Positions 24,663-64,000 of a stretch of 64,000 nt of DNA are shown here, in pieces. Every line of letters starts with the position of its first letter. Within the stretch, counting starts at the first letter, position 1. The notes below the pieces were generated by a model, which worked only from the letters and a program-made list of their open reading frames with translations, searched no databases and was not told the origin of the DNA. The DNA is from an uncultured Acidobacteriota bacterium (GTDB lineage: Bacteria > Acidobacteriota > Vicinamibacteria > Vicinamibacterales > UBA2999). Location: assembly GCA_963784065.1 (NCBI GenBank), contig CAWAQA010000004.1:341087-405086 (forward strand). Direction: 5' to 3'. A program made the translations under genes and the position numbers.

Positions 24663-24665
24663 GCC

Positions 24666-25233: not shown

Positions 25234-25246
25234 GCGTAGCGGCCTG

Positions 25247-27315: not shown

Positions 27316-27374
27316 GGAACCATGTCTCGAGGCTTGTCGCGGCAAGGTGGAGAGGGCCGGAAGACCCGGCAACG

Positions 27375-27785: not shown

Positions 27786-27801
27786 TGGTCGGTGTGCGAG
27801 C

Positions 27802-47608: not shown

Positions 47609-49283
47609 CTACCTCGCGTACCTGACGTCATCGATCATGAATTGCCCGTTCGTGCCGACGTCCGCGTTCGCCGTATCGATCACGAAAAGGACGGACTGCA
47701 CCGCGGCAAGGACGGGACGACGCGCCGTGGTGACGCCGCGCGGGACGCATGTCGTCGAAGAAAATCGTGATCTCCCGCGGCGCTGGATCGAGGACGACCG
47801 AGCGGTGCCATCGCTCCCCCGCGGCCCCGCCCGGCGCGCGGAGCTGCACCGACACGCGCATCGGCCGGCTCGCGCGCGCGGTGAAGATGAGGCGATCGTA
47901 GTTGGCGATGTCGGGGCCGGCCGGCATCACCATGCGCCGCGAAACGGGCTGTCCGATCGCGCGCCGCCCACCGCGAAGCGGAAGCCGAGCTGGCTTCCGC
48001 CTCCGGCGGCCGGCAGCCTGTCGATGACGCCGGCCGACTGCCCGCCCTGCTCTACGACCCAGTCCGCCGCCGCCGCCGTTGTCGTACTGGACCTTGAACT
48101 CCTTCGGCGTGCCGCGGTGGATCGCGGCGGCACGTCCGTCGTGGCGGAACGCCCGACGTACATCGCATTCGTGATGATCCAGGGCACGGGCGGCTGTCCG
48201 GGAGCGCCCGGCAGTCGCACCTCGACGCGATAGACGCCGGGCTCCCCCGCCGTGTCGTGCTCGAGCACGCCGCCGCCGGCCGATGCTCCCGGTCGCAGGC
48301 CGATCGTGTTTCAGCGAGCACCAGTCACGGCATCCGGAGGCACCTGCGCCACGACTCGAAGCGTCTTGCCATCGCCGGCCGTGAACGACAGGGCGGCCGG
48401 GCCGGCGAGGGCATCGACGGTGGAGTACACGCGTCCCTGTTCGATGGCATCGAGCACCGCGTTCGCGTCGGCGGACGCGCTGCCGGTCAGCGTCACGTCC
48501 GGTAGCGCGATGGAGAACGTGCGAAACAGGTCCTCATACGACGGCAGCGGGAGCAACGCCCTGCTGTCGTATGGCTCTCCCAGACTCCGCAAGCCGATGC
48601 GCGCGTGGGCATCGGCCCCGGCGACGGCGACGACGCGCCGGCGGGCGCTGAGGGCATCCCAGCGTTCCATGAGCTCTTCGGGCTGGTCGAGCAGCGTTGC
48701 CAGCGACTCCGGCGATCGCGCCGGATACGCGAAGAGCGCGCGGGTCAGCGCGAACGCGGATTCATCGCGCCACTCGCTGTCGCCGTTGAGCCATTCGAGC
48801 CCGCCGACCGGCACCGACCAGTCGGTCCATCGCAGTTCCGGCTTTGCGGACGCGGGATGGGCGGCAATCGCAAACCCTCCGAAGCGGCTGATGTCGTCGA
48901 CGACGTCGCGCGCCTCGCCGCCGAGCGGGATACGGGGTGGCGGCCGGCAGGCCGAGCGCCAGGACGTGACCGCCGTCGGTGCTGATCTCGACGGCATCGA
49001 TGCAGAGCACGCGACCGTGATACGCCGGCGGCTCGGGCGGCACGTGTCCCGTCGCCATGGTCGGTGAGGACGACGAAGCTGAGGCCGGCGCGTGCGGCCG
49101 CGGCGGCGACCTCGTCGACCGTGCCGGTGCCGTCGGATCGGCTGCGTGTGAATGTGGATCGGCGCCGCGGACGGGTGGTGTTGACACCTGCAGGCAGCGC
49201 CGGCAACGGGCGCGGCCGGCGCGGCAGCGCAAGAGACCAGGCCGACGGCAAGCGCGAACGAGGACGAAGACGAGGCGCTTCAC
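47609..49283 (-). pseudogene. PHP-domain (CehA/McbA-like) metallohydrolase with a C-terminal beta-sandwich-like domain, secreted. About five frame breaks.
   Basis: MKRLVFVLV... opens ORF 48762..49283. SDGTGTVDEVAAAAARAGLSFVVLTDHGDGT lies in ORF 48745..49251. YHGRVLCIDAVEISTDGGHVLALGL lies in ORF 48762..49283. GGEARDVVDDISRFGGFAIAAHPAS lies in ORF 48311..48997. GVYRVEVRLPGAPGQPPVPWIITNAMYVG lies in ORF 47927..48268. The end GVTTARRPVLAAVQSVLFVIDTANADVGTNGQFMIDDVRYAR-stop is from my own translation, with TAG at 47609-47611. Confidence 0.6.
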
Positions 49284-49295
49284 GAGCTGAACGAA

Positions 49296-50205
49296 CTACT
49301 GCCGCGGGTGGAACTGGTCATAGATCGTGCGCATCCGCTGCTCGAGCACGTGCGTGTAGATCTGCGTCGTCGAGAGATCGGCGTGGCCGAGCATCATCTG
49401 GATCGCGCGCAGGTCGGCGCCGCGCTCGAGCAGGTGCGTCGCGAACGAATGCCGCAGCATGTGCGGGCTGAGTGAGGCCGTAAGACCGGCCTGCCGCGCG
49501 TAGCCCTTCAGGATCTTCCAGAAGCCGACGCGCGTGAGCCCGGGTCCGCCGCCGCGCGCGTTGACGAACAGCCGCGGGCTCGTTCCGCTTGCCGAGCAGC
49601 GCCGGCCGCGCCTCGCGCAGATATGCGCCGCACCCATCGCGTGGCCTCGTCGCCAATCGGCACGACCCGCTGCTTGTCGCCCTTTCCGGTGCACGTCAGG
49701 TACGACGCCTCGAGGTTGACGTCGGCCGGGCGCAGCCCGATGAGCTCGGAGACGCGCATCCCGGTGGCGTATAGCAGCTCAATCAGCGCGCGATCGCGCA
49801 AGCCCGCGCGGCGTGGCGACATCCGGCTGCGCCATCAGCCGGTCGACCTCCTCGACCGACGAGGTAGCGCGGCAGCGCCTTCCATGCCCGCGGTGGCCGG
49901 AGATCGTCCGCCGGGCTGGCCGTGAGGTGGCCGTCGACGACGAGGAAGCGGTAGAAGCCGCGGTAACAGGCGATGGCGCGCGCGACAGAGCGAGGTGAGC
50001 GCCCTTCCGACATCAGCGTGCGCACCAGCTCCTCCAGGTCGGGACGCGCCAGCGCGTCAGGGAGCGCGTCCCGCCCGGCCGCGAATTGCGCCAGCAGCAC
50101 GAGGTCGCGGGCGTAGCTCTCGACCGAGTTCGCCGCCAGACGGCGCTCGACCGTCAGATGCGTGAGGTAGGCGTCTACCGCGGAAGCGGCTCTGGAGGAC
50201 ACCAC
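49296..50205 (-). pseudogene. xerD: site-specific tyrosine recombinase XerD/XerC. Three frame breaks.
   Basis: VDAYLTHLTVERRLAANSVESYARDL lies in ORF 49783..50205. [31 protein letters not shown] lies in ORF 49508..49822. The catalytic end [39 protein letters not shown] lies in ORF 49296..49694. No phage or IS genes flank it. Confidence 0.8.
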
Positions 50206-50401
50206 TGGACGTACTAGTCTAGTGGAACGTATCGACTGATTGAGTAGTCGTCACAACAAGCCTTGAAGCGCGGTTTCCGCGGGCGCCGGCAACACCGCGA
50301 CCCCGCCGCGCACGCTTGCGCGGTGGATTGGAACGGTGCGCCCCGCTACCGACTTGGGTGATACCTGCCAGTAGTAGGTAGAATTGTAGCGAGGATCCCG
50401 A

Positions 50402-51374
50402 ATGCCCGTTCGTTCGAAGTGGCAGTCTCTCCCGACCGAAGCGATCAATCCTTCGACGCTCGACATCGACAAGCTGGCCGCCGACGACATTGTCGAGCTC
50501 ATGATCAGCGAGGACCGCAAGATGCTGGCGGCCGTTCAACGCGAGCGCGAGCGGATCGCCCTCGGCGTCGAAATGATCTCCGTCGCGCTGCGCAAGGGCG
50601 GACGCGTCGTCTTCGTCGGCGCCGGCACCAGCGGCCGGCTCGGGGTGCTCGAGTCGGCGGAGATGCCGCCGACCTTCAGCACCGACCCGGAGCTGGTGCA
50701 GGCGGTGATGGCCGGCGGCCGCGAAGCGATCTTCGCCGCGAAGGAAGGCGTCGAGGACGACTACGAGGAAGGCGCGCGCACGATGACGCGGCTGAAGACG
50801 GGCAAGAAGGACGTCGTCATCGGCGTCTCGGCGAGCGGCATGACACAGTTCGTCCGCGGCGCACTGACCCGCGCGCGCAAGGCCGGCTCGCGCATCATCT
50901 TCGTCACCTGCGACCCGGGCACCGAGCTGCAGACGTTCGTCGATCTCACGATCGCGCCGGGCGTAGGCGCCGAAGTGATCGCGGGATCGACGCGGTTGAA
51001 GGCGGGCACGGCGACGAAGCTCGTGCTCAACATGCTGACGACCGGCGCGATGATCCGGATCGGCAAGACCTACGGCAACCTGATGGTCGACGTGCAGACG
51101 GGATCGGAAAAGCTGAAGGACCGCGCCCGCCGCATCGTCAACATCGTCACCGGCCTGGAGTACGACGAGGCCGACAAGCTGCTGAAGAAGGCGCACTGGA
51201 ACGTCAAAGCCGCCATCGTCATGCAGAAGACCGGCCTCGCGTATCCCAAGGCGTTGTCGCGGCTGCGCAAGGCGCACGACTCGATGCGCGAAGCGCTCAA
51301 CGAGGACATCGAGCCGCGGCTGCGCGGCATGCTGCAGGGCGCCGCCGAGGCCGGCACGCGCGACGGGCATGTAA
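50402..51374 (+). CDS. murQ: N-acetylmuramic acid 6-phosphate etherase MurQ. The 3' end is uncertain, because the ORF reads on to 51778, antisense to nagB.
   Basis: SIS-domain sequence: TEAINPSTLDIDKL, VVFVGAGTSGRLGVLESAEMPPTF, VIGVSASGMT, EVIAGSTRLKAGTATKLVLNMLTTG and KTYGNLMVDVQ. The family-like end ...AHDSMREALNE comes at about codon 300. Everything after about 51370 is Arg/Ser-rich noise. Confidence 0.8.
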
Positions 51375-51375
51375 G

Positions 51376-52176
51376 TCAGCGCACTGACCGCGTCGTCAGC
51401 ACCGAAGCCGCATCGCGATCGAGGTACAACTCGGCGCGGCGGTGCAGCTGCAGGAACGACGCAGGCAGGTGCGGCGTCAACGGGCCATTGATCGTCCGCT
51501 CGATGCAGCGCGCCTTCCGTTCTCCCATCGCGACGAGAATGAGCGTCGCCGCTTTCAGGATCGTTCCCATCCCCATCGACAGCGCCTCGCGCGGCACTCG
51601 GGACGGATCGCCGCCGAACAGCGCCGCGTTGTCGCGGCGCGTCGTTTCCGCCAGGGTCACGCGGTGCGTGCGCGACACGAGCTCGTCGCCAGGCTCGTTG
51701 AAGCCGATGTGTCCGTTCGCTCCGATGCCGAGAATCTGGAGGTCGATCCCGCCCGTCGCTTCGATCTCCTGCTCGTAGCGTCGTGCACTCCGCGTCGAGG
51801 TCGGCGGCAGCGCCGTTGAGAAAATGAATGCGCTGCGGCGCCAGATTGACGGCTGCGAACAGATGCTGTCTCCATGAACCGGCGGAAGCTGCCGGCATGC
51901 GACGGCGTCCACGCCGGCGAACTCGTCGAGGTTGAACGTCACCGCGCGCCCGAAGTCGGCTTCTCCCGCGGCATGGAGGCGCCGCAACTCCGCATACATC
52001 GCCACGGGCGTACGGCCGGTGGGCAGGCCGAGGACGACGTCGGGCTTCTCGCGTAACGCATCGGCGACACGCCGCGCGAGCGCGGCGGCGACCTGGGCGG
52101 GAGTGTCGAAGATCTTGACGTTCACCAGAGTCGATGCAGCCGGCAGCTGGGAGCAGGCAGCCAGCAGCGAATGCAC
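51376..52176 (-). pseudogene. nagB: glucosamine-6-phosphate deaminase NagB. Two frame breaks in the middle.
   Basis: VNVKIFDTPAQVAAALARRVADALREKPDVVLGLPTGRTPVAMY and GGIDLQILGIGANGHIGFNEPG lie in ORF 51376..52176. The intervening HLFAAVNLAPQRIHFLNGAAADLDAEC is found only in the frame of ORF 50219..51898. The start is ATG 52176 or GTG 52125. Confidence 0.85.
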
Positions 52177-52249
52177 TTACGGCTCAATGAGGTGAACGAT
52201 ACGGCCTTCAGCATCTTGTTGCGCGGAAGGTCACTGCCGGCTGCCGGCC

Positions 52250-53185
52250 TCATATGTACGACGGCACCGTGGCCCGTCCCTGTGCGGTCGCGATGGCGAG
52301 GCGCACGGCACCGATCGCAGGTTCGACGTCCAGGAGGCGAACCTCGCTTCGCGGAGCGACCTCGGAGATCCTTCTGGTCACGTCGGCCGCGAGCCACGGC
52401 ACACCGCGGAAGATGCCACCGGCCAGGATGGTCGGGAAGACATCGCCGCGCATTTCCAGCCGCGAGATGACCGACGACGCGGCGGAGGCCAGTTCGGTGC
52501 CGGCGCGCGTGAGAATGTCGGCCGCGACCGCGTCGCGCCGTTCCATCGCGGTCTGCACCAGCGAGGCCAGCGCCGTGATGGTGCGCCGGTGCACATCGCG
52601 GTCGTAGATCTCGCGGATGAGCGCGGTTGGGCTGGCGAGGTTCAAATGGTCCAGTACGAGCTCGGTCAGCAGCGTCGCAGGGCCGCGGCCGTCGTACTGC
52701 CGAACGACCGCCGACAGCGCCGCGCGGCCGATCCAGTAGCCGCCGCCTTCGTCGCCGAGCAGATAACCCCAGCCGCCGGCGCGCGCCGCGTGTCCGCTCG
52801 CGTCCTTCCCGTACGCGATCGATCCGGTGCCGGCGACGAGGACTACGCCCGGGTTCTCGCCGGCGCCGGCGACGAGGGCGACCAGCGCGTCGTTCACGAC
52901 AAGGGTGGGCGTCTTGAAGCCGATGCGCCGCATGATGCCGCGAACGGCGTCGGCGTCTCCAGGCCGATCGACGCCCGCAATGCCGAGGCAGATCGCCGCC
53001 GGCAGCCCCTCGCGCTCCGCAAGCACGGCCTCCATGACGTGGTGGAGCACCTTCTCGACTTCCAGCTCCCCCGCGGCCTGCAGGTTCGCACCGCTGCCGC
53101 GCGCCTCGGCAATGACGCGGCCCTCCGCGTCCGCGAGGATGCACACCGTCTTGGTGCCGCCGGCGTCGATGCCGAGAACGTGCAT
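52250..53185 (-). CDS. N-acetylglucosamine kinase, BadF/BadG/BcrA/BcrD ATPase family
   Basis: MHVLGIDAGGTKTVCILAD carries the phosphate-1 motif. GIAGVD. LVAGTGSIAYG. GWGYLLGDEGGGYWIG. The start is ATG 53185; the ORF opens at 53269. Confidence 0.8.
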   Translation of the reverse strand: MHVLGIDAGGTKTVCILADAEGRVIAEARGSGANLQAAGELEVEKVLHHVMEAVLAEREGLPAAICLGIAGVDRPGDADAVRGIMRRIGFKTPTLVVNDALVALVAGAGENPGVVLVAGTGSIAYGKDASGHAARAGGWGYLLGDEGGGYWIGRAALSAVVRQYDGRGPATLLTELVLDHLNLASPTALIREIYDRDVHRRTITALASLVQTAMERRDAVAADILTRAGTELASAASSVISRLEMRGDVFPTILAGGIFRGVPWLAADVTRRISEVAPRSEVRLLDVEPAIGAVRLAIATAQGRATVPSYI

Positions 53186-53213
53186 GGCAAATATGGTACA
53201 TTGCGCCGACTCC

Positions 53214-54210
53214 ATGACACTCCGCCTCTCTGCCGCGTTCGTCGTGTGCGCGGTGATCCTCGGTTTCACGGCGTCTGCTCAGGAGGTCGAGGTACGCGCG
53301 CAGTGGATCCAGGCGACCACCCTGCAGTCGCCAGAGTCGATCAGGCGGATGGTCGCCACGGCGGCCAGCAACGGCATCAACACGCTGTTCGTTCCCGTGA
53401 GACCGCAGAGTTCTGGCTTCGACTCGCTGGCCGAGACGATTGCGGCGGCGCAGCGTCCGCGGGATGCGCGTGCACGCGTGGCTCGACGTGAACCGTGCCG
53501 CGAGTGCCAGTGAACTGCCTCCGTCCCGCGACCACCTCATCTACCAGCATCCTGAATGGTTGATGGTCCCGCGGGAGCTGGCTCCGGACCTGCTGGCCGT
53601 TGACGTCAGAAGTCCCGAGTACCTCGGCCGCCTCGCGCGTTGGACGCGCGCCAATGCGGCGCGCCTCGAGGGGTTGTACGTGTCGCCCCTGCACACCGGG
53701 GCGCACCTGCAGATCGCCGCAACGGTCAAGGACCTCGTCACGCGTTATGCGATAGACGGGCTCCACCTCGATCACATTCGCTTCCCAGGCCCCGACTTCG
53801 ACTACAGCCGTGCGGCGATCGATGCGTTCCGCACCGAAATCCGCGGGCGCCTCACGGCGGCCGAGCGTGCGCGCATCGACAGCGTCGAGGCGATCGACCC
53901 CTTCGCCTACCCCGAGGAGCTGTCGGAGGCATGGCGGTTGTTCCGCCAGACCCAGCTCACCGCGCTCGTCACGCGGCTTCGAAGCACGGCGAAAGCCATC
54001 CGTGCCAGCGTCGTGGTCAGCGCCGCCGTCGTGGCGGACCCGTTGCTCGCCGCCCGTGACGGCTTCCAGGATTGGCGGACCTGGCTGGACAACGGGTTCA
54101 TCGACGCGTTGTGCCCGGTGCCGGACAACTCGCCGCATGCGCCGTCGGAGGCGATCATCGCGGACGTCCGGGCCCTCGCCGGCTCCAAGCCGGTCTGGAT
54201 CCGCAACTAG
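53214..54210 (+). pseudogene. secreted glycosyl-hydrolase-like family 10 (GHL10/DUF187-type) protein. One frame break near 53455.
   Basis: The signal peptide MTLRLSAAFVVCAVILGFTASAQ and RAQWIQATTL...NGINTLFVPVR lie in ORF 52827..53513. GMRVHAWLDVN...HPEWLMV...YVSP...VKDLVTRYAIDGLHLDHIRFP lies in ORF 53440..54210. The family call is from memory of the motif pattern and is unverified. Confidence 0.55.
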
Positions 54211-54213
54211 GGA

Positions 54214-55266
54214 GTGAGCCGATTCGCGAGCGCGCGTGAGATCCTCCGAAACGCGGTCGCCCGCCACGCGTTTCCCGCCGCCGTTGTCGAGGCCGGCGAC
54301 GCCACTGCTCCGCTCTGGCGCGAGCCGTTCGGCAGCCTGACCTTTGACGCCGGTGCGGCCCCGGCGTCGAACGACACCATCTTCGATCTCGCCTCGCTGA
54401 CGAAGGTCCTTTCGACCACGCCGCTGGCGATGCAGCAGATCGAGCGCGGCGCGATGGCCCTGGACGACCCGGTGTCACAGTACCTGGACACGTGGCAAGG
54501 CGCCGATCGCGCCGGGGTGACCGTCCGCGATCTGCTGGCGCACGCCTCGGGCCTGCCCGCGTGGCTTCCGTTCTTCCGCGATCACCGCGGCCGCGACGCG
54601 TTCGAGCGCGCGATTGCTGCCACGGCACTCGAGTACCCGCCGCGGTCGCAATCGATCTACAGCGACCTCGGCTTCATGCTCCTAGGGTTCATCCTGGAAG
54701 GCGGGGTATCACTCGCGACACGCTTCGACACGATGTTCGCGCAGATGGGCATCGTGCAGGAAGTGCAGTTCAACCCGCCGGCCCTGTGGCACCGGCGGAC
54801 GGCGCCCACCGAACAGGATCCGTGGCGCGGCCGACTGCTCGTCGGCGAGGTTCACGACGAGAACGCACACGCGCTCGGCGGCGCCGCCGGTCACGCCGGC
54901 CTCTTCGGCACGGCCGCAGCCGTTGGCGACTACGCCCGCCACCTGCTCCAGATTCTGGACGGACGCACCGGCGCGTTCCGGCGCGAGACGCTCGAGACGT
55001 TCGTGACGCGCCGGCCCGATGTGCCCGGCAGCTCCCGTGCACTGGGCTGGGACACGATGCTGCGCACCTCGTCCTGCGGCACGCGGATGTCCCCGCGCGC
55101 CTTCGGGCACACGGGATTCACGGGCACATCGTTGTGGATCGATCCTGACGCGGGCGTGTACGTCGTCCTGCTGACGAACCGGGTGCATCCGACACGCGAG
55201 AATGACGCGATGAAACTGGTGCGGCCGGCCGTCCACGACGCCGTGATGGAGGACCTGAGGGTGTAG
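54214..55266 (+). CDS. serine hydrolase, beta-lactamase family
   Basis: Intact 350-aa ORF. SxxK motif FDLASLTKVLSTTPLAM. YSDLGFMLLG. A HTGFTGTSLWIDP end that is typical of the family. Confidence 0.8.
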   Translation: MSRFASAREILRNAVARHAFPAAVVEAGDATAPLWREPFGSLTFDAGAAPASNDTIFDLASLTKVLSTTPLAMQQIERGAMALDDPVSQYLDTWQGADRAGVTVRDLLAHASGLPAWLPFFRDHRGRDAFERAIAATALEYPPRSQSIYSDLGFMLLGFILEGGVSLATRFDTMFAQMGIVQEVQFNPPALWHRRTAPTEQDPWRGRLLVGEVHDENAHALGGAAGHAGLFGTAAAVGDYARHLLQILDGRTGAFRRETLETFVTRRPDVPGSSRALGWDTMLRTSSCGTRMSPRAFGHTGFTGTSLWIDPDAGVYVVLLTNRVHPTRENDAMKLVRPAVHDAVMEDLRV

Positions 55267-55328
55267 TGGGCAGTGGGCACGACCCACGCGAGGCGCTGCC
55301 AACTGCTGACTGCGGAGTGCCGACTACT
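55266..55328. repeat. convergent-gene spacer made of 9 heptad words (GTGGGCA-type then NACTGCN-type)
   Basis: Reads gtgggca gtgggca cgaccca cgcgagg cgctgcc aactgct gactgcg gagtgcc gactact. The spacer lies exactly between the two stop codons (55264-55266 and 55328-55330). Confidence 0.7.
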
Positions 55329-56278
55329 TACGGGACCGTGAACGGGGAACCGCCGCGGCCGCGGCCGCCTGGCAATTGGAGCGGTGATGCGCCGCTGCCC
55401 TGCGGCAATCCGCGTCCGCCGCCACCCAGGCCAGGCGTCGGCAGACCTCTCCCTCGTCCTTCCATGCCTGGCAACTGCGTGCCCCGTCCGCCCGGCGTCG
55501 CCGTGCCGGGGACGCCGCCGCCCGCCTGCTGGTTGGCTTCGGTCGCGACGAACGCCCACTCGTTGTATTTGTTGCGGCCGTTGAAGAGGCGCAGTGAGGT
55601 CTGCTCGCTCTTGCTGACGACACCCAGGACAGGTCCCGTTGTCCCCCCGGTACCTGGGCGCGTCACGCGATTGAAGCCAGACGCGGCCGGGCCCGTTCCG
55701 CCGCCGGCGCCCAATCCGAGGGTCGCGCCCGTGCCACGCCCACCGGTCGGATCCGTGCCCTGGCCGGTGCCAAGTCCCGTCCCGCGGCCTGCGCCGGCCC
55801 CCAATCCCCCGCCGCTCCCCAATCCCCCGCCGCTCCCCAATCCTCCGCCGCCCCCCAATCCTGCTCCTGCCCCTAACCCCGCGCCGCCCCCTAACCCTGC
55901 TCCTGCTCCGCGGCCGGGGACCACCGGCGCAGTCATCTGGCCTGGCACTGGCGTGCCGACCGAGATGATCTGGAACTCGCCGTCCGCCGTCATCGGGTCC
56001 TTGTACTTTTTCCGGAGGAACTTCTCGTTGACGAGGACGTCAACGCTCGGCGGGAACGCGCCGCGACTGCGCTGGTAGAGCGCGACGGCGCGCGAGTACT
56101 GCAGTCCGCGGAATACGAGCTCTTCTTCGCGCTCGCGCCGGGCGAGCGTCCCCCACGCGGGCAGCAGCATGCTGAGCGCGATGGACATCACGCTCAGCAT
56201 GATGAGCAGCGCAGCCATCGCGAAGCCGCGCTCGCTACTAGAGAACGATCGTCGTGGTGCCGGTTCCCGTGCGCCCAT
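55328..56278 (-). CDS. Gly-rich pseudopilin-like protein with a hydrophobic N-terminal helix (last gene of the pilus/T2SS-like operon)
   Basis: Intact 316-aa ORF. ...SSERGFAMAALLIMLSVMSIALSMLLPAW resembles a prepilin leader plus helix, but has Ala where the conserved Glu5 would be. Then LVFRGLQYSRAVALYQ and FLRKKYKDPMT, and long GLGxGG and GGRG tracts. The start at 56278 overlaps the upstream gene by 41 nt. Confidence 0.55.
   Translation of the reverse strand: MGAREPAPRRSFSSSERGFAMAALLIMLSVMSIALSMLLPAWGTLARREREEELVFRGLQYSRAVALYQRSRGAFPPSVDVLVNEKFLRKKYKDPMTADGEFQIISVGTPVPGQMTAPVVPGRGAGAGLGGGAGLGAGAGLGGGGGLGSGGGLGSGGGLGAGAGRGTGLGTGQGTDPTGGRGTGATLGLGAGGGTGPAASGFNRVTRPGTGGTTGPVLGVVSKSEQTSLRLFNGRNKYNEWAFVATEANQQAGGGVPGTATPGGRGTQLPGMEGRGRGLPTPGLGGGGRGLPQGSGASPLQLPGGRGRGGSPFTVP
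55799..55906 (-). repeat. 18-nt tandem repeat, 6 units, encoding (G-A/G-G-L-G-x) hexapeptides
   Basis: Plus-strand units: ccccaatcccccgccgct (twice), ccccaatcctccgccgcc, ccccaatcctgctcctgc, ccctaaccccgcgccgcc, ccctaaccctgctcctgc. Confidence 0.85.
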
Positions 56279-57552
56279 CCCGCAGTATCACTCTCACCGA
56301 GACAGTCTTTGAGCCGGTGCTCGAATAGGTGAAGGTCGCCGAGTTCGTGCTGGTGACCACGTTCGGGCTAGTGCCCTCGAACGTCCACTCATAACTGATC
56401 ACATCGCCGGACGCGGCGCCGCTGACCGATGCCGTCGCGGTGACGGTGAGTCCCGAACCGTTCGCCGTGACGGCGACTCCGACCACGCCGCGAACCTGGA
56501 CAAGCTGATCCGCCGTCGTCGTCTCGCCGTTGATGTCTGTTGCGACGAGGCGCGCCGAGAAGGTTCCCGTTGTGCCATACGCGTGCGTCACCGTGGCGGC
56601 GCTGGACAGGTTCCCGAGGTTGATGGTTTCGCCGTCACCGAAGTCGAGGCGCGCCGACGTCAGATTGCTGCCCGTGGCGACCCGGGTTGCCGTGAACGTC
56701 ACCAGTTGGCCGATACCAACATTGGAGCAGGCGGCGGTTCCCACGGCACACGTCAGCGTTACCGACGGGCCTGTACCGCACGGTGACCGTGAATGTGCCC
56801 GTAATCGCACCGACACGCGCCGTCACCTCGCTCTGGGCGGTCGTCGCCAGCGTCGTCCGCGCCTCACCAATGTCGCTCGTAATGGCGGTCGTGGCGCCGA
56901 GTGTGCCCTGGGTTGCGCTGAACACAACGGGAATGCCGGGCAACGCCCGGCCGCCTTCGCCGATCACCGTGGCCAACAGTTCCACGGTCCCCCCGGTAGA
57001 CGGCACGCTTGCCGGCGTGGCGCGGAGCGCGACGACGCCCGTCGTGCCGATCGCGGCCGTGCCGACGGCGATCGTGACGACATTCGTTCCCGTCGCAGGA
57101 GCGGGCGTGCCGTTCGGCGGAGGCGTCGTCGTGCCGCCAGCTCCGGTGGTACCCGATGTGGCGCGGATTTCCGCGGTCCCGGATGTGGTTCCGGTGAACA
57201 TCGTGACGGCCACGCCGTTCCGGGTCTGGGTCTCGACCGGGTTGACGGTACCGAGGTTCGTCGAGAAGCGAACCGTCGTACCGTTCTGCACCGGCGTGCC
57301 GCTCGACTCGGCGACAAATGCCTGGATCTCCGTCGAACCGCCGATGGGCAGGACGCTGATCGGCGCGCTCACCGAAATCGTGGAGCTTGTCGGGGCAAGC
57401 AACGGCACCGAGTCGCACGCGCCGGCCGCGATCGCCGAAGACACGACTGCGACGAGCACTGCGGCACGCCGCTTCCATGCGCCGGCCCGGCGAACACCGT
57501 CGGTCATGACCATCGAGGTACCTGCGATCACCACACTACCCTTGAGTTTCAT
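56238..57552 (-). pseudogene. surface lipoprotein with bacterial Ig-like (Big) and PKD-like domains. One frame break near 56790.
   Basis: The lipobox ...VAVVSSAIAAGAC and Ig-like repeats (TEIQAFVAESSGTPVQNGTTVRFSTNLGTV; TVELLATVIGEGGRALPGIPVVFSATQGTLG) lie in ORF 56635..57552. ...GTFTVTV continues as TGPSVTLTC..., followed by PKD-like repeats (FDFGDGE-type LDFGDGETINLG...THAYGTTGTF; YEWTFEG...TFTYSSTGSKTVSVRV) in ORF 56238..56816. Confidence 0.7.
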
Positions 57553-57555
57553 CTC

Positions 57556-57960
57556 TTACCAATCCGCGTATCGCGATCCGTCAATCGCCGTGTCCTCCGC
57601 ACCGCTCTTCACGTCGAAGATCCCCGACTCGGCAAGCGCATTCCCAGGCTGGGGATCCGACATCGTCGTCTGCCAGGTTTCGGCGGAGTTGGTAATCGGG
57701 TCAACAGGGACCGCACGGAGGTACTTCTCCGACACCAGCGACTCGAGCGATGGCGGGTACTTGTTCTTGTCGGCGTAGTACTGGTCGATCGCGTCGCGCA
57801 TCCGGAAGAGATCGGATTTCAGCACCGCCTCTTTCGATCGCTGGATGCTGTTGACGTACAGCGCCGTGGCGATGCCGGCGAGGATGACGATGATGGCCAT
57901 CACGATCATCAACTCGATGAGCGTGAACCCATCGGCTCGCGTTCGGCGCATCCTGACCAT
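57556..57960 (-). CDS. GspG-like type II secretion pseudopilin / type IV pilin-like protein
   Basis: Prepilin N-terminus RADGFTLIELMIVMAIIVILAGIATALY. GspG-like body LFRMRDAIDQYYADKNKYPPSLESLVSEKYLRAVPVDPIT. ATG 57960 overlaps the upstream stop as TGATG; the ORF opens at 58083. Confidence 0.8.
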   Translation of the reverse strand: MVRMRRTRADGFTLIELMIVMAIIVILAGIATALYVNSIQRSKEAVLKSDLFRMRDAIDQYYADKNKYPPSLESLVSEKYLRAVPVDPITNSAETWQTTMSDPQPGNALAESGIFDVKSGAEDTAIDGSRYADW

Positions 57961-58460
57961 CACCATTCGTTGTACTTGGTTCCGTCGAGAGCCGTACCCG
58001 TGTTCGTCGTGTAGATGTCGAACACGTTCTGTCCTCCCCAGGACGACGAGTCGGGCCGATCCTGATAGGACCGCATGCCCCACTCCATGCTGTTGGTCAT
58101 CGGGTCGAGCGGCACGCGCCGCAGGTACTTCAGCTTCCGCCCTGACGCGTCGCCGGCGGCACTGACGCCCTCCACGAGCGTCTCGAGGTCCGGCGGATAC
58201 CCCTCGCTGCCGGGCTCGAGCTCGGTCTGCGGAATCTGGCCGGCGTCCACGGCATCCTTGAACTTGTCGATCGCGTTCCGCACCTCGCGCAGCGTCCGGC
58301 GCAGCTCCGCTTCGCGCTGGCGCTGCGATGTCACCTGGGCCAGCGGCATCACCGCCGACGCGAGGATCATCAGGATGGCGGTGACGATCACGAGCTCGAC
58401 GAAGGTGTAGCCGCGTTCGCCGCCGGGCAAGGTCCGCGCCGCAGCTATCAGGCGTCTCAT
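57960..58460 (-). CDS. GspG-like type II secretion pseudopilin / type IV pilin-like protein (second copy)
   Basis: Intact 166-aa ORF. GERGYTFVELVIVTAILMILASAVMPLA. LREVRNAIDKFKD. YPPDLETLVEG. YLRRVPLDPMT. Confidence 0.8.
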   Translation of the reverse strand: MRRLIAAARTLPGGERGYTFVELVIVTAILMILASAVMPLAQVTSQRQREAELRRTLREVRNAIDKFKDAVDAGQIPQTELEPGSEGYPPDLETLVEGVSAAGDASGRKLKYLRRVPLDPMTNSMEWGMRSYQDRPDSSSWGGQNVFDIYTTNTGTALDGTKYNEW

Positions 58461-60943
58461 CGGACCACGACCATCGGAACAGGCGCGAACACGAGCGGGA
58501 CCGGTGTGCCGCGCGGCCCGGTGCCGGCGCCGGTCAGCGTCAGATTGCCGGAGCCACCACCCACTGCGTCGAACAGGATGGCGGCCAGCAAGCCGGTCCC
58601 GGACACACCCGTGGCATCCCCCGCACGCACGATGGCGATGTCGATCCGTCCCGCTGCCGCGTCCACCTGCTGCGTGAATGTGGCGTTCACGCCGCCGGAG
58701 CGCATGAAGCTGCCCTCCTGGATGGCGCGCACGCGCAGCGCCGACGGATTGAACGTGATCGTCAGCGTCGCTCCGGACACCATCGATGCGCCGGTGATCG
58801 AGACGGGTACCGTGTATGGACCGCCGCCGACGCGGAAGTCGGTGCCCGGCGGCGAGAGGAAGATCTGGCCCCCTCCGGCCGCGGTCGCACCAACGTTCGA
58901 TGCGGGCGTCCCTGCGGCCTGGGGCGTCGAGCCTGGCGGTGTCAGCGCAGAACCTGGCTGCTCAGTGGGCGCCGGCACCGGCGGAACGGTTGGTGTCGGC
59001 GTACCCTGCCCAGGGGTGGCGGGAGCAGTCGTCGTGCCGGGAATGGGCGAGCTGCCCGGCGGAACCTGCGGGACGGGGCCACTTCCCGTGGGCAGCACAG
59101 GCTGACCGGCTACCGGCGCGGCGCGGTGCGCCAGCCGCAGGAGCCGGAGGAGAAGCCGGCGGAGGAGCGATGTCAGGCTGCGCGGCGATCAGCGGCGGCG
59201 GACCCCCGAGGCCCAGCGCCTGCTGTGTGCCGATAAAGATCGGGCTCACATCGGTCTGGGTCAGCTCGTGCGTCCGTACGATCCGCGGCGTGAGCAGCAT
59301 GATGATATCAGTCTGATCAACCTCCGTGATCTCCGTACCAAACAGCGAGCGCAGGATCGGGATGCGCATGAGACCCGGAAATCCCCGCATCGTTTTTCGC
59401 TCGTTGTCGTCCAGCAGTCCTGCCATCAGGTTGGACTCGCCGTCACGCAGCCGCAGCCGCGTGTTCACGCGTCGGGCGTTGAATGACGGTAACGCTTGAC
59501 CGCCGACCGTGGTGTTAGGACCGAGCGAACTGCTCTCGACCAGGACGTCGAGGATGATCTCGTTCTCGAACGTCACACGCGGTGTCATCTCGATGATCAC
59601 GCCCACGGTCCGGTAGTTGAACGAGGTCAGCGGGTTGAAGCTTGCCCCGCCCTGGGCCACCGGTGTGAAGACCGTCGAAGGGACCGGGACTTCCCGCCCG
59701 AGATTGAGCGTGATCTTCTGCCCTTCGGCGCCTCGAAGTTGCGGCTTGGCGATCTGCCTGGTGCCGATATCGGTCTCGAGGAAACGCAGAACGGCGGACG
59801 GCACCGCCATGTAGAAGTCGGCGGTCGAGACGCCGCGGGTGATGGTATTCAGGTTGAACGGCGTCGACGTCACACCCGCGGCGGTGGGGGGATCGGTGTC
59901 GTTGCCGGGCGTGGCGCCCGTGATCCCTCGCTGCTCGGGCGAGAACGCGAGGTTGACGGCGTACTCCGACAGGTTGATGCCGAATTCCTTGACCCTGCCC
60001 CGGTTCACCTCGAGGATCTGGACGTCGATGATGATTTCCGAGCGCGGATTGTCGTTCGCCTCGATCATCTTTTCGATGATCGACACGACGTTCGCGGTCC
60101 CGCGCACGGTGATCGTGTTCGCCGTCTTGTTCGCGGCCAGCACCGGCTGCACGGCGATCGCCGGGATGCGGATGACCTGGTTGAGCGTCTGCACCAGCTC
60201 CGTCGCGTCGGCGTGCGAGATGAAGAAGGTGCGGATCACCTGCTCCTCGTACGCCGCGCGCTTCTGCGCGTTGTCCGGGATGATCATGATGGTGCGCGGG
60301 TTGATCACCTTGTAGAACAGCGTGTTCGCGCCCAGGATCTGCGTCAGCGCTTCCTCGAACGTGACGCCGCGCAGGTTCACCGTGTACATCCGGTCCTGGA
60401 AGTCGCGCTCGTAGCTGATGTTGATCCCGGCCGCCATGCCGATGGAGTTGAGGATGTCGCGCAGGCTGGAATTGTTGAAGATGACGTCGATCGGCTCGCG
60501 CGACGCCGGGTTCAGCAGCGGCTGCGACTGTCTCGCGACGTCGCGCATCTGCTGGATCGACGGTTGCGGCCGCGAGGCTTCCACCAGGTCGCGGATGCGC
60601 CGCTCCATCTCCAGTACCTTCGCCGACACGAGGCGGTTCGACGGGTCGAACTCGCTGGCGCGGCGGTATTCGCGCAGCGCCTCCTCGAGCTGCCCGCGCG
60701 CCTCGAGGACACGCGCCTGATCCAGGTGCAGGTTGGCGGCATTGATCATCGCGCGCTCGAGCGCGATCTGGTAGTCGGCGCGTTCGGGGTCTTCCTGGAC
60801 GGCACGGCGATAGAAATCCACTGCCGTGTCCCAGTCACCCGCGCGCGCCGCGCTCTCGCCGCTGCCGAACGCGCGGCTCGCCGCGCACCCTGCCCCCAAG
60901 GCGGCATCACGATCACGATCACAATGGCTAGTCGATGCATCAT
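58457..60943 (-). pseudogene. secretin (GspD/PilQ family) with N-terminal TPR region and C-terminal cohesin-like domain. Two frame breaks (about 60895 and about 59100).
   Basis: The lipoprotein-like start MMHRLAIVIVIV lies in ORF 60746..60943. ORF 58962..60899 carries the rest of the N-terminus and the core. It has a TPR-like part (DWDTAVDFYRRAVQEDPERADYQIALE...) and N-domains (IDVIFNNSSLRDILNSIG; VIRTFFISHADATELVQTLNQV). Its secretin core is IIIDVQILEVNR, SFNYRTVGVIIEMTPRV, ESNLMAGLL and GFPGLMRIPILRSLFG. After a Pro-rich linker there is an about 150-aa domain (PYTVPVSITGASMVSGATLTITFNPSALRV...GRIDIAIVRAGDATGVSGTGLLAAILFDAVGGGSGNLTL) in ORF 58457..59098. Confidence 0.85.
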
Positions 60944-61520
60944 TGCCCTGAGAGCCGGATCACCTGCCGTCCGCGGCCGTCGGTGTAGGCCATCTCGACG
61001 TTGTCTGCGCCAATCCTCAACAGACGATATCGGCCTTCGATGATATCGCCTTCCCTTCCCGTCAAGACGGTCCCGCGGCCGTCACTCAGGATGGCGACGC
61101 GGCCCGCCTGAGCCGGAGCGTTCAGCAGGCCGATGAACCGCAGCGGGATCGGCGGCGGCGGCGGCGGCCCCTGCGGCACCGGCGGTCCCGTGGGGACGAC
61201 CCGCGGGGCGGGCGCGGCGCCGGCGCCGGGGCCCGGAGGCGCGGGGGGCGGCGCCTTCACCTCGAAGCGGAACAGGTTGCGCTCCGCCACGGGAGCGTCT
61301 TTCGCGGGCCGCGTTCAGCGCCTCGAGCTGGATGTCCGTCACCGGCGCCTGGCCGCCCCTTCCCGGCTGCTGCCGGGTTCCGGTCGTGCCGGATACTGGA
61401 TTGGACGGTGCGGCCGAGGTTCCGGCCGGGGTGTCGCCTCCCCGCAGCGTGATGACGAGAACCAGGCCGCACCACGAGCGCGCCGAGGACGGCGAGCTGC
61501 TTCTGCGTCTTCGACGCCAT
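60940..61520 (-). pseudogene. PilP-like / GspC-like pilus assembly protein. Two frame breaks.
   Basis: MASKTQKQLAVLGALVV is the membrane anchor in ORF 61257..61520. APVTDIQLEALNAA lies in ORF 61082..61342. ERNLFRFEVKAPPP...IPLRFIGLLNAPAQAGRVAILSDGRGTVLTGREGDIIEGRYRLLRIGADNVEM lies in ORF 60940..61290. Its position between pilO and the secretin supports the call. Confidence 0.5.
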
Positions 61521-62104
61521 CAGGCCGCGTCCCGGAAGTAGGTGGACATCTCCAGCGTCACCACTTGGGCGCCGGTGTTCTCCGCGCCCGCCGCGAGCTC
61601 GACGTTGTCGATGACCACGAACTCCGGGGACGCTTCGAGCTGGTGGATGAAGGTGCGCATGTCCTCGTAGGCGCCGCTCAGAACCATCCTGATTCTCAGA
61701 CGGCGGAGCGTGCTCTCGCGGATTTCGACTTCCTCGTACTGATCGCGATCGAACGTGAGGTCCGATTCGCGGGCGAGCTGCCGCAGCCGCAGCTGCGTCA
61801 GCCGCCGCGCCCCCGACAGGTCCGGCGGCAGCACGTCCTTGTAAAAGGTAGCGAGCTCGGTGGAGGCGCGGTCTTTACCGGTCAGCGTGCCATTGGCCTG
61901 CGCGAAATCCGCCTGCGCCGCCGTCAGTGCCTGCCCCGCAGCGTCGTTGCGTTGCTCGACGTTGGCGACGCGCTGCGCCAGCGGATACACGAACAACGCG
62001 TACACCAGCGCGTTCGCCACGAGAGCGACGACCAGCGGCACCACGACCCGCCGGTGCTCGGCGAGCACGCGCCGCCCCAGAGACGTGCCGTGAGGGCTGC
62101 TCAT
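61520..62104 (-). CDS. pilO: type IV pilus/T2SS inner-membrane assembly protein PilO-like
   Basis: Intact 194-aa ORF. One TM (VVVPLVVALVANALVYALFVY), a coiled-coil region, then the ferredoxin-like end LRIRMVLSGAYEDMRTFIHQLEASPEFVVIDNVEL. The gene is start/stop-coupled on both sides. Confidence 0.65.
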   Translation of the reverse strand: MSSPHGTSLGRRVLAEHRRVVVPLVVALVANALVYALFVYPLAQRVANVEQRNDAAGQALTAAQADFAQANGTLTGKDRASTELATFYKDVLPPDLSGARRLTQLRLRQLARESDLTFDRDQYEEVEIRESTLRRLRIRMVLSGAYEDMRTFIHQLEASPEFVVIDNVELAAGAENTGAQVVTLEMSTYFRDAA

Positions 62105-62685
62105 GGCTGGGGTGCCTCCTGCTGGGCTGTGCGCGACGGCGGCTGGTAGACGCCTTCGATGATCGCCTCGAGCAGCCCCTCCTCGTTGGTCTGCGTCTCG
62201 GTGGCGAGCACGTTGTGGAACGCGCCGGTCGTCTCGAGCGCGTCGATGAACGCCTCGAGGTCCTCGGCGCGCCGCGCGTCCACGGCGATGCCGATGATGA
62301 ACACGCCCTTCTCGAGGCGCGGCTGCACCGCCGTGATGCGGACGTCGTCCGGGAGCGTCGCCTCGAACTGCGTGAAGAGCTCCGTCCAGGAGAAGGAGCG
62401 CTGATCGATGAGGTCGTTCGCCTCGCGCGCCGCGCTCGCCACCGTCTCCAGCTCCGTCGGGTTGATCTGCGCGCGAATGCGTGACGCTTCCGACCGCAGC
62501 CGCGCCGCCTCGCGCTCGGCTTCATCCGCGTTGGCGCCCAGCGTCTGCTGACTGGTCATCAGCGTGAGGATCCTGATGCCGTTGAACAGCGTGATCCCGA
62601 TGACGACGGCGGCGAGCGTGGACAGCGCGACCTGGACGGCGCGGACGTTGTAGAACGGCTTCGTCGCGAGATTGGTCCGGATCAT
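62101..62685 (-). CDS. pilN: PilN-like (fimbrial assembly) protein
   Basis: MIRTNLATKPFYN is the typical PilN N-terminus. TM ALSTLAAVVIGITLFNGI. WTELFTQFEATLPDDVRITAVQP. ATG 62685 overlaps the pilM stop. Confidence 0.75.
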   Translation of the reverse strand: MIRTNLATKPFYNVRAVQVALSTLAAVVIGITLFNGIRILTLMTSQQTLGANADEAEREAARLRSEASRIRAQINPTELETVASAAREANDLIDQRSFSWTELFTQFEATLPDDVRITAVQPRLEKGVFIIGIAVDARRAEDLEAFIDALETTGAFHNVLATETQTNEEGLLEAIIEGVYQPPSRTAQQEAPQP

Positions 62686-63651
62686 CAGGCCGCCACCGCC
62701 TCCCGGCGCGTCCGCAGCAGCATGCCGACGAGCGGCGCGAGCAGATCCATCAGCTCCGGCGTGACGCCGATGCGGTCGCGCAGCGACGCGGCGCGCGTCG
62801 GATCGATCGGTTCCACGCGTCACGCCGAGGCGCTCCTCGAGGCTGCGCCGCGCCGCGTCGACGACGCCCGGCACACGGCCGGTGCCGCCGAGCAGCACGC
62901 GCGTGAACCCCTGTCCCGTCAAGCCGGTCCTGGTAGTACATCGCCGTCTGGTGCACGAGGTCGGCGAGGATGTCGTCGCCTCGCCCTGCGGCCGGCTGCG
63001 GAAGAAGATGACGTGCTCGCCGCGCATGATGGCGAGCGAGGTGTACTCGGGCTGCATGTGGACGACGAGCCAGTCGCCCGCGGGGGCGTCTGTCGAGGCC
63101 AGGAACAGGTTGATGACGCTGAGCGTCGCGAGGTCCACGAGCCCGGCATAGGCGCCGGCTTCGTCGCAGACGCCTTCGTACTCGCGCACGACGTCGCGGC
63201 GGGCCATGGCGACGACGAACTCGGCGCCGGCGGCGCCGCGCGCGCCCGGGCTATACGTCACGCACGCATCGTCGATCGGGAACGGCGCCGACTTCTTCAG
63301 CTGCCAGCGTACGAGCTGGTCGAGGTCCTCGCGGCGGGCGGGAACCTGGTCGAACCGCAACAACGAGACGCGGGCGGCGACGTCGGGGATGACCAGCGCG
63401 ACGCGGCGCGGCCGGCTGCCCAGGCGCTCGAACACCGCCTGCAGCGCCGCCACGACACGCGGCCGATCGGCGAGGTTGTGCGCGGTGAGCGACGGTACCA
63501 CCGCCCCGGCGGGGAGCGGCTCGCTCGCATAGCCCTGCACGACGAGGTCGCGCCCGCGCGCGCTCATCGTGGCCACGGCGACGCGCTCGGGCGAGATCTC
63601 GACCGCCGCGTCAGGAGGCGGACTGGCGAGCCAGGAGGCGAGCAGGCTCAT
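62685..63651 (-). pseudogene. pilM: PilM-like actin-fold pilus assembly ATPase. Three frame breaks.
   Basis: MSLLASWLASPPPDAAVEISPERVAVATM...VALVIPDVAARVSLLRFDQVPARREDLDQLVRWQLKK...LVDLATLSVINLF...YTSLAIMRGEHVIFFRSRP lies in the main frame. LVHQTAMYYQDRL lies in ORF 62750..62956. GFTRVLLGGTG is back in the main frame. The end VEPIDPTRAASLRDRIGVTPELMDLLAPLVGMLLR lies in a third frame (my own translation). Confidence 0.8.
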
Positions 63652-64000
63652 TCGACGAAGGTCACCTTGTTGATTTCGCGCAGGGTCGATCTGGCCCAGC
63701 AGCACCTTCTCGACCGCGGACTCGCGGAGGAACCGCATGCCTTCTTCGTGTGCCGCCTTCTTGATTTCGGACGCCGGGCGGCGATCGAGGATCATCTCAC
63801 GGATGCGATCGGAGAGATCCAGGAGCTCGCAGATGGCCGTGCGTCCCTTGAAGCCGGTGCCGCCGCATTCGATGCAGCCCGCGCCCTCGTAGAACGGTGT
63901 GCGACTGGGCCAGCGACGGCTCGAGCGCGGACTCCTCCAGCAGCTTCGGATCGACGCGGACCGCGCGCTTGCAGTGCGAGCAGATCAGGCGCACGAGCCG
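63648..64000 (-). pseudogene. GspE/PilB-family secretion ATPase, C-terminal end only (the gene continues beyond the right edge). Two frame breaks.
   Basis: VRLICSHCKRAVRVDPKLLEE lies in ORF 63797..63994. FYEGAGCIECGGTGFKGRTAICELLDLSDRIREMILDRRPASEIKKAAHEEGMRFLRESAVEKVLLGQ lies in the frame of ORF 62101..63795 and carries the tetracysteine Zn motif. The end STLREINKVTFVE-stop lies in a third frame, overlapping the pilM ATG as ATGA. Confidence 0.8.

Follow-up and report, generated by a model that had tools for sequence, protein, structure and literature searches.

Results

A ten-gene cluster on the minus strand (55328-64000) of a 64,000-nucleotide (nt) stretch of contig CAWAQA010000004.1, from an uncultured acidobacterium of the order Vicinamibacterales (the whole stretch is hereafter the window), encodes a machine of the type IV filament superfamily that mixes parts familiar from type II secretion systems (T2SSs) and type IVa pili (T4aP). 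From the first gene to the last, the cluster encodes a GspE/PilB-family ATPase, PilM, PilN, a PilO/GspM-like protein, a PilP-like protein, a secretin, two pseudopilins (PP1 and PP2), a Big_1/PKD lipoprotein (hereafter Big/PKD) and a glycine-rich pilin. Its parts list, tight translational coupling and conservation across the order Vicinamibacterales are directly observed. We conclude that it is a distinct, conserved variant within the type IV filament superfamily, and we do not file it as a member of either the T2SSs or the T4aP. By analogy with the surface lipoproteins PulA and InvL, the cluster has, in our judgement, an even chance of being a single-locus T2SS-like machine that displays its co-encoded Big_1/PKD lipoprotein on the cell surface.

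Gene order, coupling and conservation

A preliminary description of the window had read the genes as a pilus/T2SS-like operon with start/stop coupling and an unusual pair of genes at its end. This reading holds: the ten genes, their order and their strand are borne out by three-frame translation and Pfam domains, and 11 related loci share the genes, the order and single reading frames. Domain searches of the products recovered T2SSE, PilM_2, PilO/T2SSM_b, Secretin with Secretin_N and STN, two N_methyl domains and Big_1 with PKD, and PilN was borderline. All seven overlapping junctions listed in that description were found, four of them ATGA (63648-63651, 62101-62104, 60940-60943 and 58457-58460) and three TGATG (62683-62687, 61518-61522 and 57958-57962), and in every case the stop codon closes the upstream gene in the frame that homology supports, and the ATG opens the downstream gene. 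The figure of 61520-62522 given in that description for one of them is a slip of typing for 61518-61522. Two further tight contacts, not listed before, complete the series. A gap of 3 nt separates PP2 from the lipoprotein gene (TAA GAG ATG, about 57552-57558), and the glycine-rich open reading frame (ORF), if it begins with the ATG at 56278, the only start upstream of its pilin motif, overlaps the end of the lipoprotein gene by 41 nt. Because an intact relative, locus L013, has the same overlaps (ATGA or TGATG/TAATG at eight junctions and 47 nt at the last), we do not attribute the terminal overlaps to chance. Start/stop coupling thus applies to the frame-corrected genes; as ten intact ORFs the operon does not stand, five genes being broken in the deposited sequence (see below). 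In the window, the last two genes did not turn out to be unrelated to the machinery and separately transcribed. Promoter and terminator scans of 54900-64000 gave nothing above shuffled sequence, a result that is uninformative on internal promoters.

Ten of the related loci came from a pattern scan with one genome per species, and the eleventh, L013, lies on a 1.28-Mb contig. The ten are labelled as metagenome-assembled genomes (MAGs) of Vicinamibacterales or other Acidobacteriota, except for two labelled Bifidobacteriaceae/Bifidobacterium. Their secretins are 51-78% identical to that of the window, and the L013 secretin is 86% identical after frame correction (82% by local alignment). The gene set and its order recur in 11/11 loci, where every gene reads in one frame and the ATPase gene is immediately preceded by a gene for a GspF/PilC platform protein. 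The whole cluster, as seen in the relatives, thus starts with GspF and comprises more than ten genes. This agrees with the earlier suggestion that the platform protein may be encoded beyond 64000, and a tblastn search with the L010 GspF found no match in the window.

Table 1. Features of the gene cluster and the positions of its frame-disrupting indels (window coordinates; aa, amino acids).
Feature	Coordinates	Strand	Description
GspE/PilB-family assembly ATPase, 3' end	63648..64000	-	Last ~116 codons, cut by the window end; CxxC...CxxC zinc motif
PilM, actin-like cytoplasmic alignment protein	62685..63651	-	~321 codons, broken
PilN-like bitopic inner-membrane protein	62101..62685	-	194 aa, intact
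PilO/GspM-like bitopic inner-membrane protein	61520..62104	-	194 aa, intact
PilP/GspC-HR-like protein	60940..61520	-	Broken; N-terminal membrane anchor, Pro-rich linker, ~65-aa C-terminal beta domain
Lipo-secretin	58457..60943	-	~825 codons, broken
Cohesin-like domain, secretin C-terminus	about 58460-58810	-	Pfam Cohesin 27.7 bits, cut-off 24.1
Pseudopilin PP1	57960..58460	-	166 aa, intact; motif ERG↓YTFVE with Glu5; no Cys
Pseudopilin PP2	57556..57960	-	134 aa, intact; motif DG↓FTLIE with Glu5; no Cys
Big_1/PKD lipoprotein	56238..57552	-	~437 codons, broken; Big_1 (invasin-type Ig) and two PKD
Gly-rich pseudopilin paralogue	55328..56278	-	316 aa, intact; motif ERG↓FAMAA, Ala at +5
18-nt tandem repeat, 5.6 copies	55792..55891	-	Encodes GLGxGG run (Tandem Repeats Finder)
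ATPase indels	about 63897, about 63690		+1, +1
PilM indels	about 62980, about 62922, about 62818		+2, +1, +1
PilP-like indels	about 61469, about 61304		+1, +1
Secretin indels	about 60906; about 59120-59170		-1; net +1, in Pro-rich linker
Big_1/PKD indel	about 56777		+1

Components of the machine

The ATPase fragment matches Pfam T2SSE (33 bits), and its three stitched frames are 93% identical to L001 over 116 aa; full-length ATPases of relatives have 541 aa with MshEN and T2SSE domains (433 bits). PilM scores 53 bits on PilM_2 (cut-off 27), and the stitched protein aligns with relatives end to end in one frame at 82-83% identity. The PilN-like protein is borderline on the Pfam PilN model (22.4 bits, cut-off 22.8) and 84% identical to its L013 counterpart. 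The PilO-like protein reaches 28.7 bits on T2SSM_b (cut-off 21.7) and 20.4 bits on PilO (cut-off 22), with its L010 orthologue scoring 54.3 on NCBIfam GspM_XpsM (cut-off 60). The PilP-like protein has a membrane anchor that lacks a lipobox Cys and yielded no Pfam, NCBIfam or PDB sequence match, including a search of the PDB with the family profile. Its fold backs the PilP-like call made earlier. An AlphaFold2 model of the residues encoded at 60943-61314 shows a six-stranded beta domain (predicted local distance difference test 85-91), and the top nine Foldseek matches in the PDB are PilP (2y4y, 3jc8_P, 2lc4 and 2ivw, from Pseudomonas aeruginosa, Myxococcus xanthus and Neisseria meningitidis) and the homology region (HR) domain of GspC/PulC (3oss_C and 6hcg_e), with probabilities of 0.99-1.00. 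By fold, then, this is an HR/PilP-type beta domain on a Cys-free anchor as in GspC, and there is no PDZ domain. A PilM-PilN-PilO-PilP alignment set (PilN and PilO borderline, PilP by fold) is present upstream of the secretin, and the inner-membrane platform is of T4aP type, with split PilM and PilN, PilO and a PilP-fold protein.

The secretin has a composite architecture that comprises a signal peptide with lipobox (…ALGAGC), a tetratricopeptide repeat (TPR) module, STN/N0, Secretin_N, the core, a ~100-aa Pro/Thr/Ala linker and the cohesin-like domain (Pfam Secretin 113 bits, TPR_2 37 bits, Secretin_N 30 bits). The relatives encode it as a single ORF of 803-856 aa, and the architecture is common to all of them; among the top 120 database homologues, all but one have TPR and Secretin, and Cohesin is flagged in about 40%. 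The preliminary description had missed the TPR, lipobox and cohesin features, along with the frameshifts. Because matches to the TPR region are limited to designed consensus TPRs and a weak match to the Myxococcus lipoprotein TraC, we use ‘pilotin-like’ for this module as an analogy and not as a claim of homology. The lipo-secretin is probably self-piloting, by analogy with HxcQ, a self-piloted liposecretin that is a known exception (PMC12475490). Pfam searches found no AMIN domain in the secretin and no dockerin-like partner for its cohesin-like domain among the operon products.

Three genes of the locus are pilin-like. PP1 and PP2 match N_methyl (23.8 bits with a cut-off of 21.2, and 35 bits, respectively), are paralogous (hhalign 99.8%) and share class III signal peptides (G↓Y/F-x-x-x-E) and a conserved end, LDGT-x-Y-x-[DE]-W. 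The PP1 alignment is highly conserved, and the exact PP1 protein occurs on two independent soil contigs. Searches for exact copies of PP2, PilN, PilO and the 645-aa ORF of the broken secretin returned no contig. On the GspG model TIGR01710 the two pilins score 28.7 (the L010 orthologue of PP1) and 40.8, against a cut-off of 88.85. PP2 scores 17.4 bits on T2SSG (cut-off 21), and its profile search of the PDB returned pilin N-termini and GspG 5wda over positions 7-83. Of the mixture of PilMNOP with T2SS-type major pseudopilins that had been proposed, the PilMNOP half stands, whereas the type of the pseudopilins is weakly backed, the GspG models lying far below their cut-offs. The sole GspH/I/J/K signal is a GspH score of 26.8 bits (cut-off 80) on the pilin N-terminus of PP2.

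The glycine-rich protein joins PP1 and PP2 as their third paralogue (hhalign to the PP2 family 97.9%, E 4e-13, 101 columns), in line with its earlier designation as pseudopilin-like. Its lack of Glu5 in the N-terminal helix, also remarked on before, is a trait of the whole family: throughout alignments of 14 and 78 homologues, Gly at -1 and an aromatic residue at +1 are kept and +5 is Ala. The protein carries an insertion at aa ~122-211 and a Gly/Arg/Pro-rich tail at aa ~247-316; insertion length varies widely among homologues. The AlphaFold2 model has a long, pilin-like N-terminal helix and a small sheet, with the insertion and the tail disordered. Foldseek found no match to this model in the PDB, and the family profile returned nothing useful from PDB sequences. 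There are at least 691 homologues, which are named PulG by JGI.

Secretion system or pilus?

Does the cluster then belong to a known machine? It has the elements of a generic type IV filament system, namely a GspE/PilB-family ATPase, GspF/PilC (in the relatives) and class III pilins, yet every component stays below the curated family cut-offs for T2SS and T4aP (NCBIfam equivalogs). The ATPase scores 536 on GspE (cut-off 630) versus 530 on PilB, the platform protein 358 on GspF (cut-off 424) versus 311 on PilC, and the secretin 148 on GspD (cut-off 351) versus 127 on PilQ (TIGR02515, cut-off 284) and 95 on MshL (TIGR02519, cut-off 250). Typing the ATPase and secretin by such scores and by comparison with solved structures was indecisive, since GspE is about equal to PilB and GspD to PilQ. 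Measured against a canonical T2SS, the cluster falls short on the GspD, GspE and GspF cut-offs and on GspL, GspM, GspG and the GspH-K set, and agrees in being a single locus, with GspF to the glycine-rich gene contiguous in 11 loci. Measured against T4aP, it falls short on the PilQ score, PilT at the locus, a disulphide-bonded major pilin and the minor-pilin/PilY1 set. The cluster fits the description of generic or atypical type IV filament systems, which lie outside strict models and are found in non-proteobacterial phyla (Denise et al. 2019).

We favour a T2SS-like machine over a pilus because the genes form a single locus, because the pilins are short and Cys-free with GspG as the best full-domain match, and because neither PilT nor a minor-pilin/PilY1 set was found at the locus. 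T2SSs are encoded in a single locus in 96.5% of cases and type IV pili (T4P) in multiple loci in 99% (Abby et al. 2016, PMC4793230). The search for a second, PilT-like ATPase covered the 64-kb window and ±10 kb around the 11 loci and found none, although one may be encoded elsewhere in the genome.

The main rival is a true extracellular adhesive type IV pilus of T4aP-like kind or resembling the mannose-sensitive haemagglutinin (MSH) pilus, in which PP1 and/or PP2 would form the fibre, the glycine-rich pilin its tip or priming subunit, and the lipoprotein an accessory outer-membrane or adhesin component. We consider this possible, though doubtful. It would account well for PilM, PilN, PilO and the PilP-fold protein, which are the T4aP alignment set, for the MshEN domain in the relatives' ATPase, and for the pilin profiles, whose best matches are the N-termini of type IV pilins; among solved structures the ATPase comes closest to PilB of Geobacter and Myxococcus and PilF of Thermus, and T4P secretins have TPR modules at their side in the pilotins PilF, PilW and Tgl. 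The single-locus layout, with no PilT found nearby, fits it poorly, however, as do the lack of the disulphide-bonded C-terminal region of T4a pilins, the missing minor-pilin/PilY1 set, and a secretin that scores higher on GspD than on PilQ, also against the PDB (74 versus 69 bits), weak as both matches are.

The Big_1/PKD lipoprotein as candidate cargo

The lipoprotein carries Big_1 (Pfam, 45.9 bits), PKD_4 (60.5 bits) and PKD (58.9 bits) domains, and is a single ORF in L002, L003, L010 and L013. Its lipobox in the window (…AAGAC) is followed by DSVPLLAPT (N-terminus 57400-57430), and the lipobox with C-[D/E]-[KS]-V-P-L-L-A-P-[TS] recurs in 9/9 orthologues whose N-terminus lies on the contig, as C-E in L009 and C-D in the others. 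The residue after the lipid-modified Cys is Ala in the secretin (N-terminus 60880-60943) and Asp or Glu in the lipoprotein, and the enterobacterial rule would sort the two to different membranes. For the T2SS substrate PulA, Asp at P2' is needed to escape the Lol pathway and reach the secretion system (PMC12802150). This +2 Asp rule was established in enterobacteria and differs between phyla (PMC12802150). InvL, an invasin-type lipoprotein with immunoglobulin (Ig) domains, is displayed by a T2SS (PMC9245377). The Big/PKD protein is also the fastest-evolving product of the cluster, at 60% identity versus 79-86% for the machinery. Its gene is kept between those for PP2 and the glycine-rich protein in 10/10 clusters that reach this position. 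The fixed slot, the acidic +2 residue as opposed to Ala, the fast evolution and the invasin-type Ig domain make this lipoprotein the best candidate for cargo.

Is it instead only a conserved neighbour of a T2SS-like or pilus machine, without a functional link and with the substrates encoded elsewhere? The gene lies on the opposite strand in 5/10 clusters (the more distant L005-L009) and thus need not belong to the transcript; its linkage is conserved, its co-transcription is not. Many unrelated surface proteins also have Big and PKD domains, and T2SSs often secrete many unlinked substrates (PMC4793230). We nevertheless think such a bystander role improbable. The gene holds the same slot over 51-86% secretin identity, in both the window and L013 it shows translational coupling to its two neighbours, and its inversion is precise at the gene boundaries. 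A fixed slot and a precise inversion are hard to explain unless the linkage is under selection.

In L005-L009 the inversion is exact at the gene boundaries (about 13300-15800; for example 14703-14711 in L009), the starts of the lipoprotein and glycine-rich genes stand head to head, about 0-20 nt apart or overlapping, and the lipoprotein stop lies 85-104 nt from the PP2 stop (816 in L008). With this head-to-head layout, promoters must therefore lie within the neighbouring coding regions.

Frameshifts as probable assembly errors

Ten frame-disrupting indels in 8.7 kb, located by DNA alignment to L001 and L013, break five of the ten genes (those for the ATPase, PilM, the PilP-like protein, the secretin and the lipoprotein) and spare PilN, PilO, PP1, PP2 and the glycine-rich gene. 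Nine of the ten are insertions, and none falls at a homopolymer. Three-frame translation shows each of the five broken proteins resuming in another frame; once stitched, they align over their whole length with single-frame orthologues, with zero stops, at 79-86% identity to L013 (60% for the lipoprotein) and, for the ATPase fragment, 93% to L001. Two independent short-read contigs, L014 (Logan) and L015 (JGI), which are 96% identical to the window at the DNA level, are free of the additional bases at 61469 and 61304 and do contain the base missing at 60906, and their proteins are intact. Elsewhere in the window, unrelated genes are split in the same way by comparison with single-frame orthologues in related loci (44343-46271, 47612-49215, 49299-50205 and 53262-54198, with breaks near 44.3-46.3, 47.6-49.2, 49.9 and 53.4 kb). 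Indel density across the window is ~1 per kb, as is usual for a long-read contig that has not been polished. The truncated 645-aa secretin ORF, including its out-of-frame tail, is an exact match to a protein deposited at NCBI/ENA from a 445,382-bp contig.

The breaks are very probably long-read assembly errors and not gene decay: the stitched proteins align, the near-identical contigs are intact at three sites, unrelated genes are also hit, and the broken ORF is deposited from a long contig. If so, the genes are therefore functional in the organism. We consider it very improbable that the strain itself has these frameshifts and that its operon is an array of pseudogenes in decay. The number of indels, spread over five genes and carried by the deposited assembly, speaks for such decay, but neither stops nor other lesions appear in the corrected frames, every segment is 79-93% identical to relatives, insertions predominate, the same type of break recurs in unrelated flanking genes, and two contigs of 96% identity are intact at three of the sites. 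A long-contig homologue, P0174, likewise has an out-of-frame tail. Programmed frameshifting was considered and rejected, as the indels are scattered, lie off slippery or homopolymer sites, affect unrelated genes too and are missing from the near-identical contigs.

P0174 (ENA, on a 228-kb contig) is an 80%-identical secretin homologue whose out-of-frame tail starts inside the Pro-rich linker, and this low-complexity linker seems to be error-prone in long-read assemblies. The 564-aa ‘PilM-PilN’ ORF of the window is an artefact of assembly errors. Long-read MAG contigs like this one contain ~1 frameshift per kb, and gene calls such as the truncated secretin and the ‘fused’ PilM-PilN ORF need correction before they are interpreted.

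Genomic neighbourhood

The remaining window is core chromosome and the downstream neighbours are syntenic, and for these reasons we regard the cluster as a resident chromosomal operon and not a mobile element. Core genes at 11486-29941 include those for GuaA, DnaE (1223 aa), RecJ, an LptC/LptA-domain protein, RpoN (sigma-54) and the phosphoenolpyruvate-utilising enzyme PtsI; the proximity of RpoN is probably coincidental. The convergent neighbours at 50390-55266 are of amino-sugar type (an SIS protein, NagB-like Glucosamine_iso, a BadF/BadG-type kinase, GHL10 and a beta-lactamase-fold protein), and this set is syntenic with the operon in L013 and other relatives. Just upstream of the L013 cluster, on the opposite strand (1057-3172), are genes for a microcompartment shell (BMC-domain) protein and an aldehyde dehydrogenase.

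Upstream of GspF, 11/11 relatives encode a conserved lipoprotein (303-348 aa; 3229-4140 in L013, 3203-4249 in L010) that has no Pfam match and may form an additional part of the system; over its first ~55 codons, several loci match in another frame than over the remainder. No prepilin peptidase was found in the window or within ±10 kb of any locus, and no Peptidase_A24 among the called genes of L013. Two polytopic membrane ORFs of the window, at 1-975 (minus strand) and 2065-2664 (plus strand), have 8 and 5 hydrophobic segments and no Pfam match, and by Pfam they are not prepilin peptidases.

Discussion

How might such a machine work? In the T2SS-like reading, the ATPase and GspF, held by the PilMNO(P) complex, would polymerise PP1 and PP2 into a short periplasmic endopilus that grows under the self-piloting lipo-secretin with its N-terminal TPR module. 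The Glu5-less glycine-rich paralogue would be the first subunit and hence the tip, as argued for GspK; Glu5 would be dispensable there because a tip subunit has no preceding N-terminus to neutralise. The machine would act as a T2SS-like piston with the Big_1/PKD lipoprotein as its dedicated cargo. The conserved acidic +2 residue would hold this lipoprotein in the inner membrane, from which the machine would move it through the secretin to the surface, where it may serve as a lipid-anchored Ig-like adhesin or binding protein.

We also consider, as an unlikely elaboration, a minimal ‘lipoprotein display’ machine of the Vicinamibacterales with three pilin paralogues, two with Glu5 and one a glycine-rich cap. 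In it, a cohesin-like domain tethered at the C-terminus of the self-piloting TPR lipo-secretin would dock the lipoprotein or the glycine-rich tip, Cys-Asp-x-Val-Pro-Leu-Leu-Ala-Pro would be the sorting signal, and T2SS-type function would be built on PilMNOP and dispense with GspC, GspL, GspH-K and GspN.

Several points weigh against a T2SS-like display machine. Separate PilM and PilN are the T4aP layout and not GspL, GspH/I/J/K-like minor pseudopilins were not detected in the locus, and the solved structures closest to the ATPase are PilB proteins. All components fall below the curated cut-offs, and the lipoprotein gene is inverted in half of the informative clusters. The +2 Asp rule is carried over by analogy from enterobacteria to Acidobacteriota, across phyla between which sorting differs, and the favoured reading gives the cohesin-like domain no role. 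Secretion, surface exposure and filament length are predictions from the genes.

The nearest models for display are the Klebsiella Pul T2SS with PulA and the Acinetobacter baumannii T2SS with InvL, which share with the acidobacterial cluster a machine of GspE, GspF, secretin and GspG-like pilin in one locus. PulA is alike in the acidic residue directly after the lipid-modified Cys and InvL in its invasin-type Ig domains, and in Klebsiella the cargo gene adjoins the machine genes. Unlike these systems, the acidobacterial cluster lacks the GspC PDZ domain, GspL, GspH-K and GspN, has PilM, PilN and the PilP-like protein instead, and scores below every Gsp equivalog cut-off, and its link to the cargo is one that we infer. 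The Hxc T2SS of P. aeruginosa offers a likeness in its self-piloted lipobox secretin HxcQ; the acidobacterial secretin, with its own lipobox, may likewise reach the outer membrane without a separate pilotin. It adds the N-terminal TPR and the C-terminal cohesin-like domain, and the platform of its machine is of PilMNOP type. The glycine-rich pilin can be compared with GspK, the tip pseudopilin of T2SSs, which is the only subunit of its set without Glu5 and has a large insertion in the pilin fold. The glycine-rich protein is likewise the sole Glu5-less pilin with a large insertion, but neither its sequence nor its fold gives a detectable match to GspK, its insertion is a disordered Gly-rich repeat and not a helical domain, and GspI and GspJ are missing.

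On the pilus side, the T4aP machines (PilBCMNOPQ) of Pseudomonas, Myxococcus and Thermus share PilM, PilN, PilO and a PilP fold upstream of the secretin, a PilB-like ATPase and a secretin-linked TPR. In the acidobacterial cluster, by contrast, the TPR is fused to the secretin, no AMIN domain was detected, the genes form one locus, the pilins are Cys-free, and PilT and a minor-pilin/PilY1 set are missing from the locus. Set beside the MSH pilus, the relatives' ATPase has an MshEN domain, the secretin stays below the MshL cut-off, and the msh gene order differs from that of the acidobacterial cluster. Generic type IV filament systems, such as the ‘T2SSs’ of Chlamydia and Bacteroidetes, are alike in having an ATPase, platform, pilin and secretin without fitting the strict T2SS or T4aP models; the components of the acidobacterial cluster score between types. 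The fusion of lipobox, TPR, secretin and cohesin-like domain, the Glu5-less glycine-rich pilin and the embedded lipoprotein set the acidobacterial cluster apart from them, and were not found described in literature searches. Nor did these searches find a published account of this cluster.

The cluster represents a widespread, uncharacterised form that a well-known machine takes in acidobacteria. It is common, with thousands of metagenomic homologues auto-annotated merely as GspD or PulG. Few bacteria are as abundant in soil as the Acidobacteriota, especially the Vicinamibacterales, and their envelope machines are almost unstudied. Should the cluster prove to be a minimal T2SS-like machine with a single lipoprotein cargo, it would be a simple, naturally occurring system in which to study how lipidated proteins are recognised by T2SSs and carried to the surface, and would show how few pseudopilins such a machine needs.

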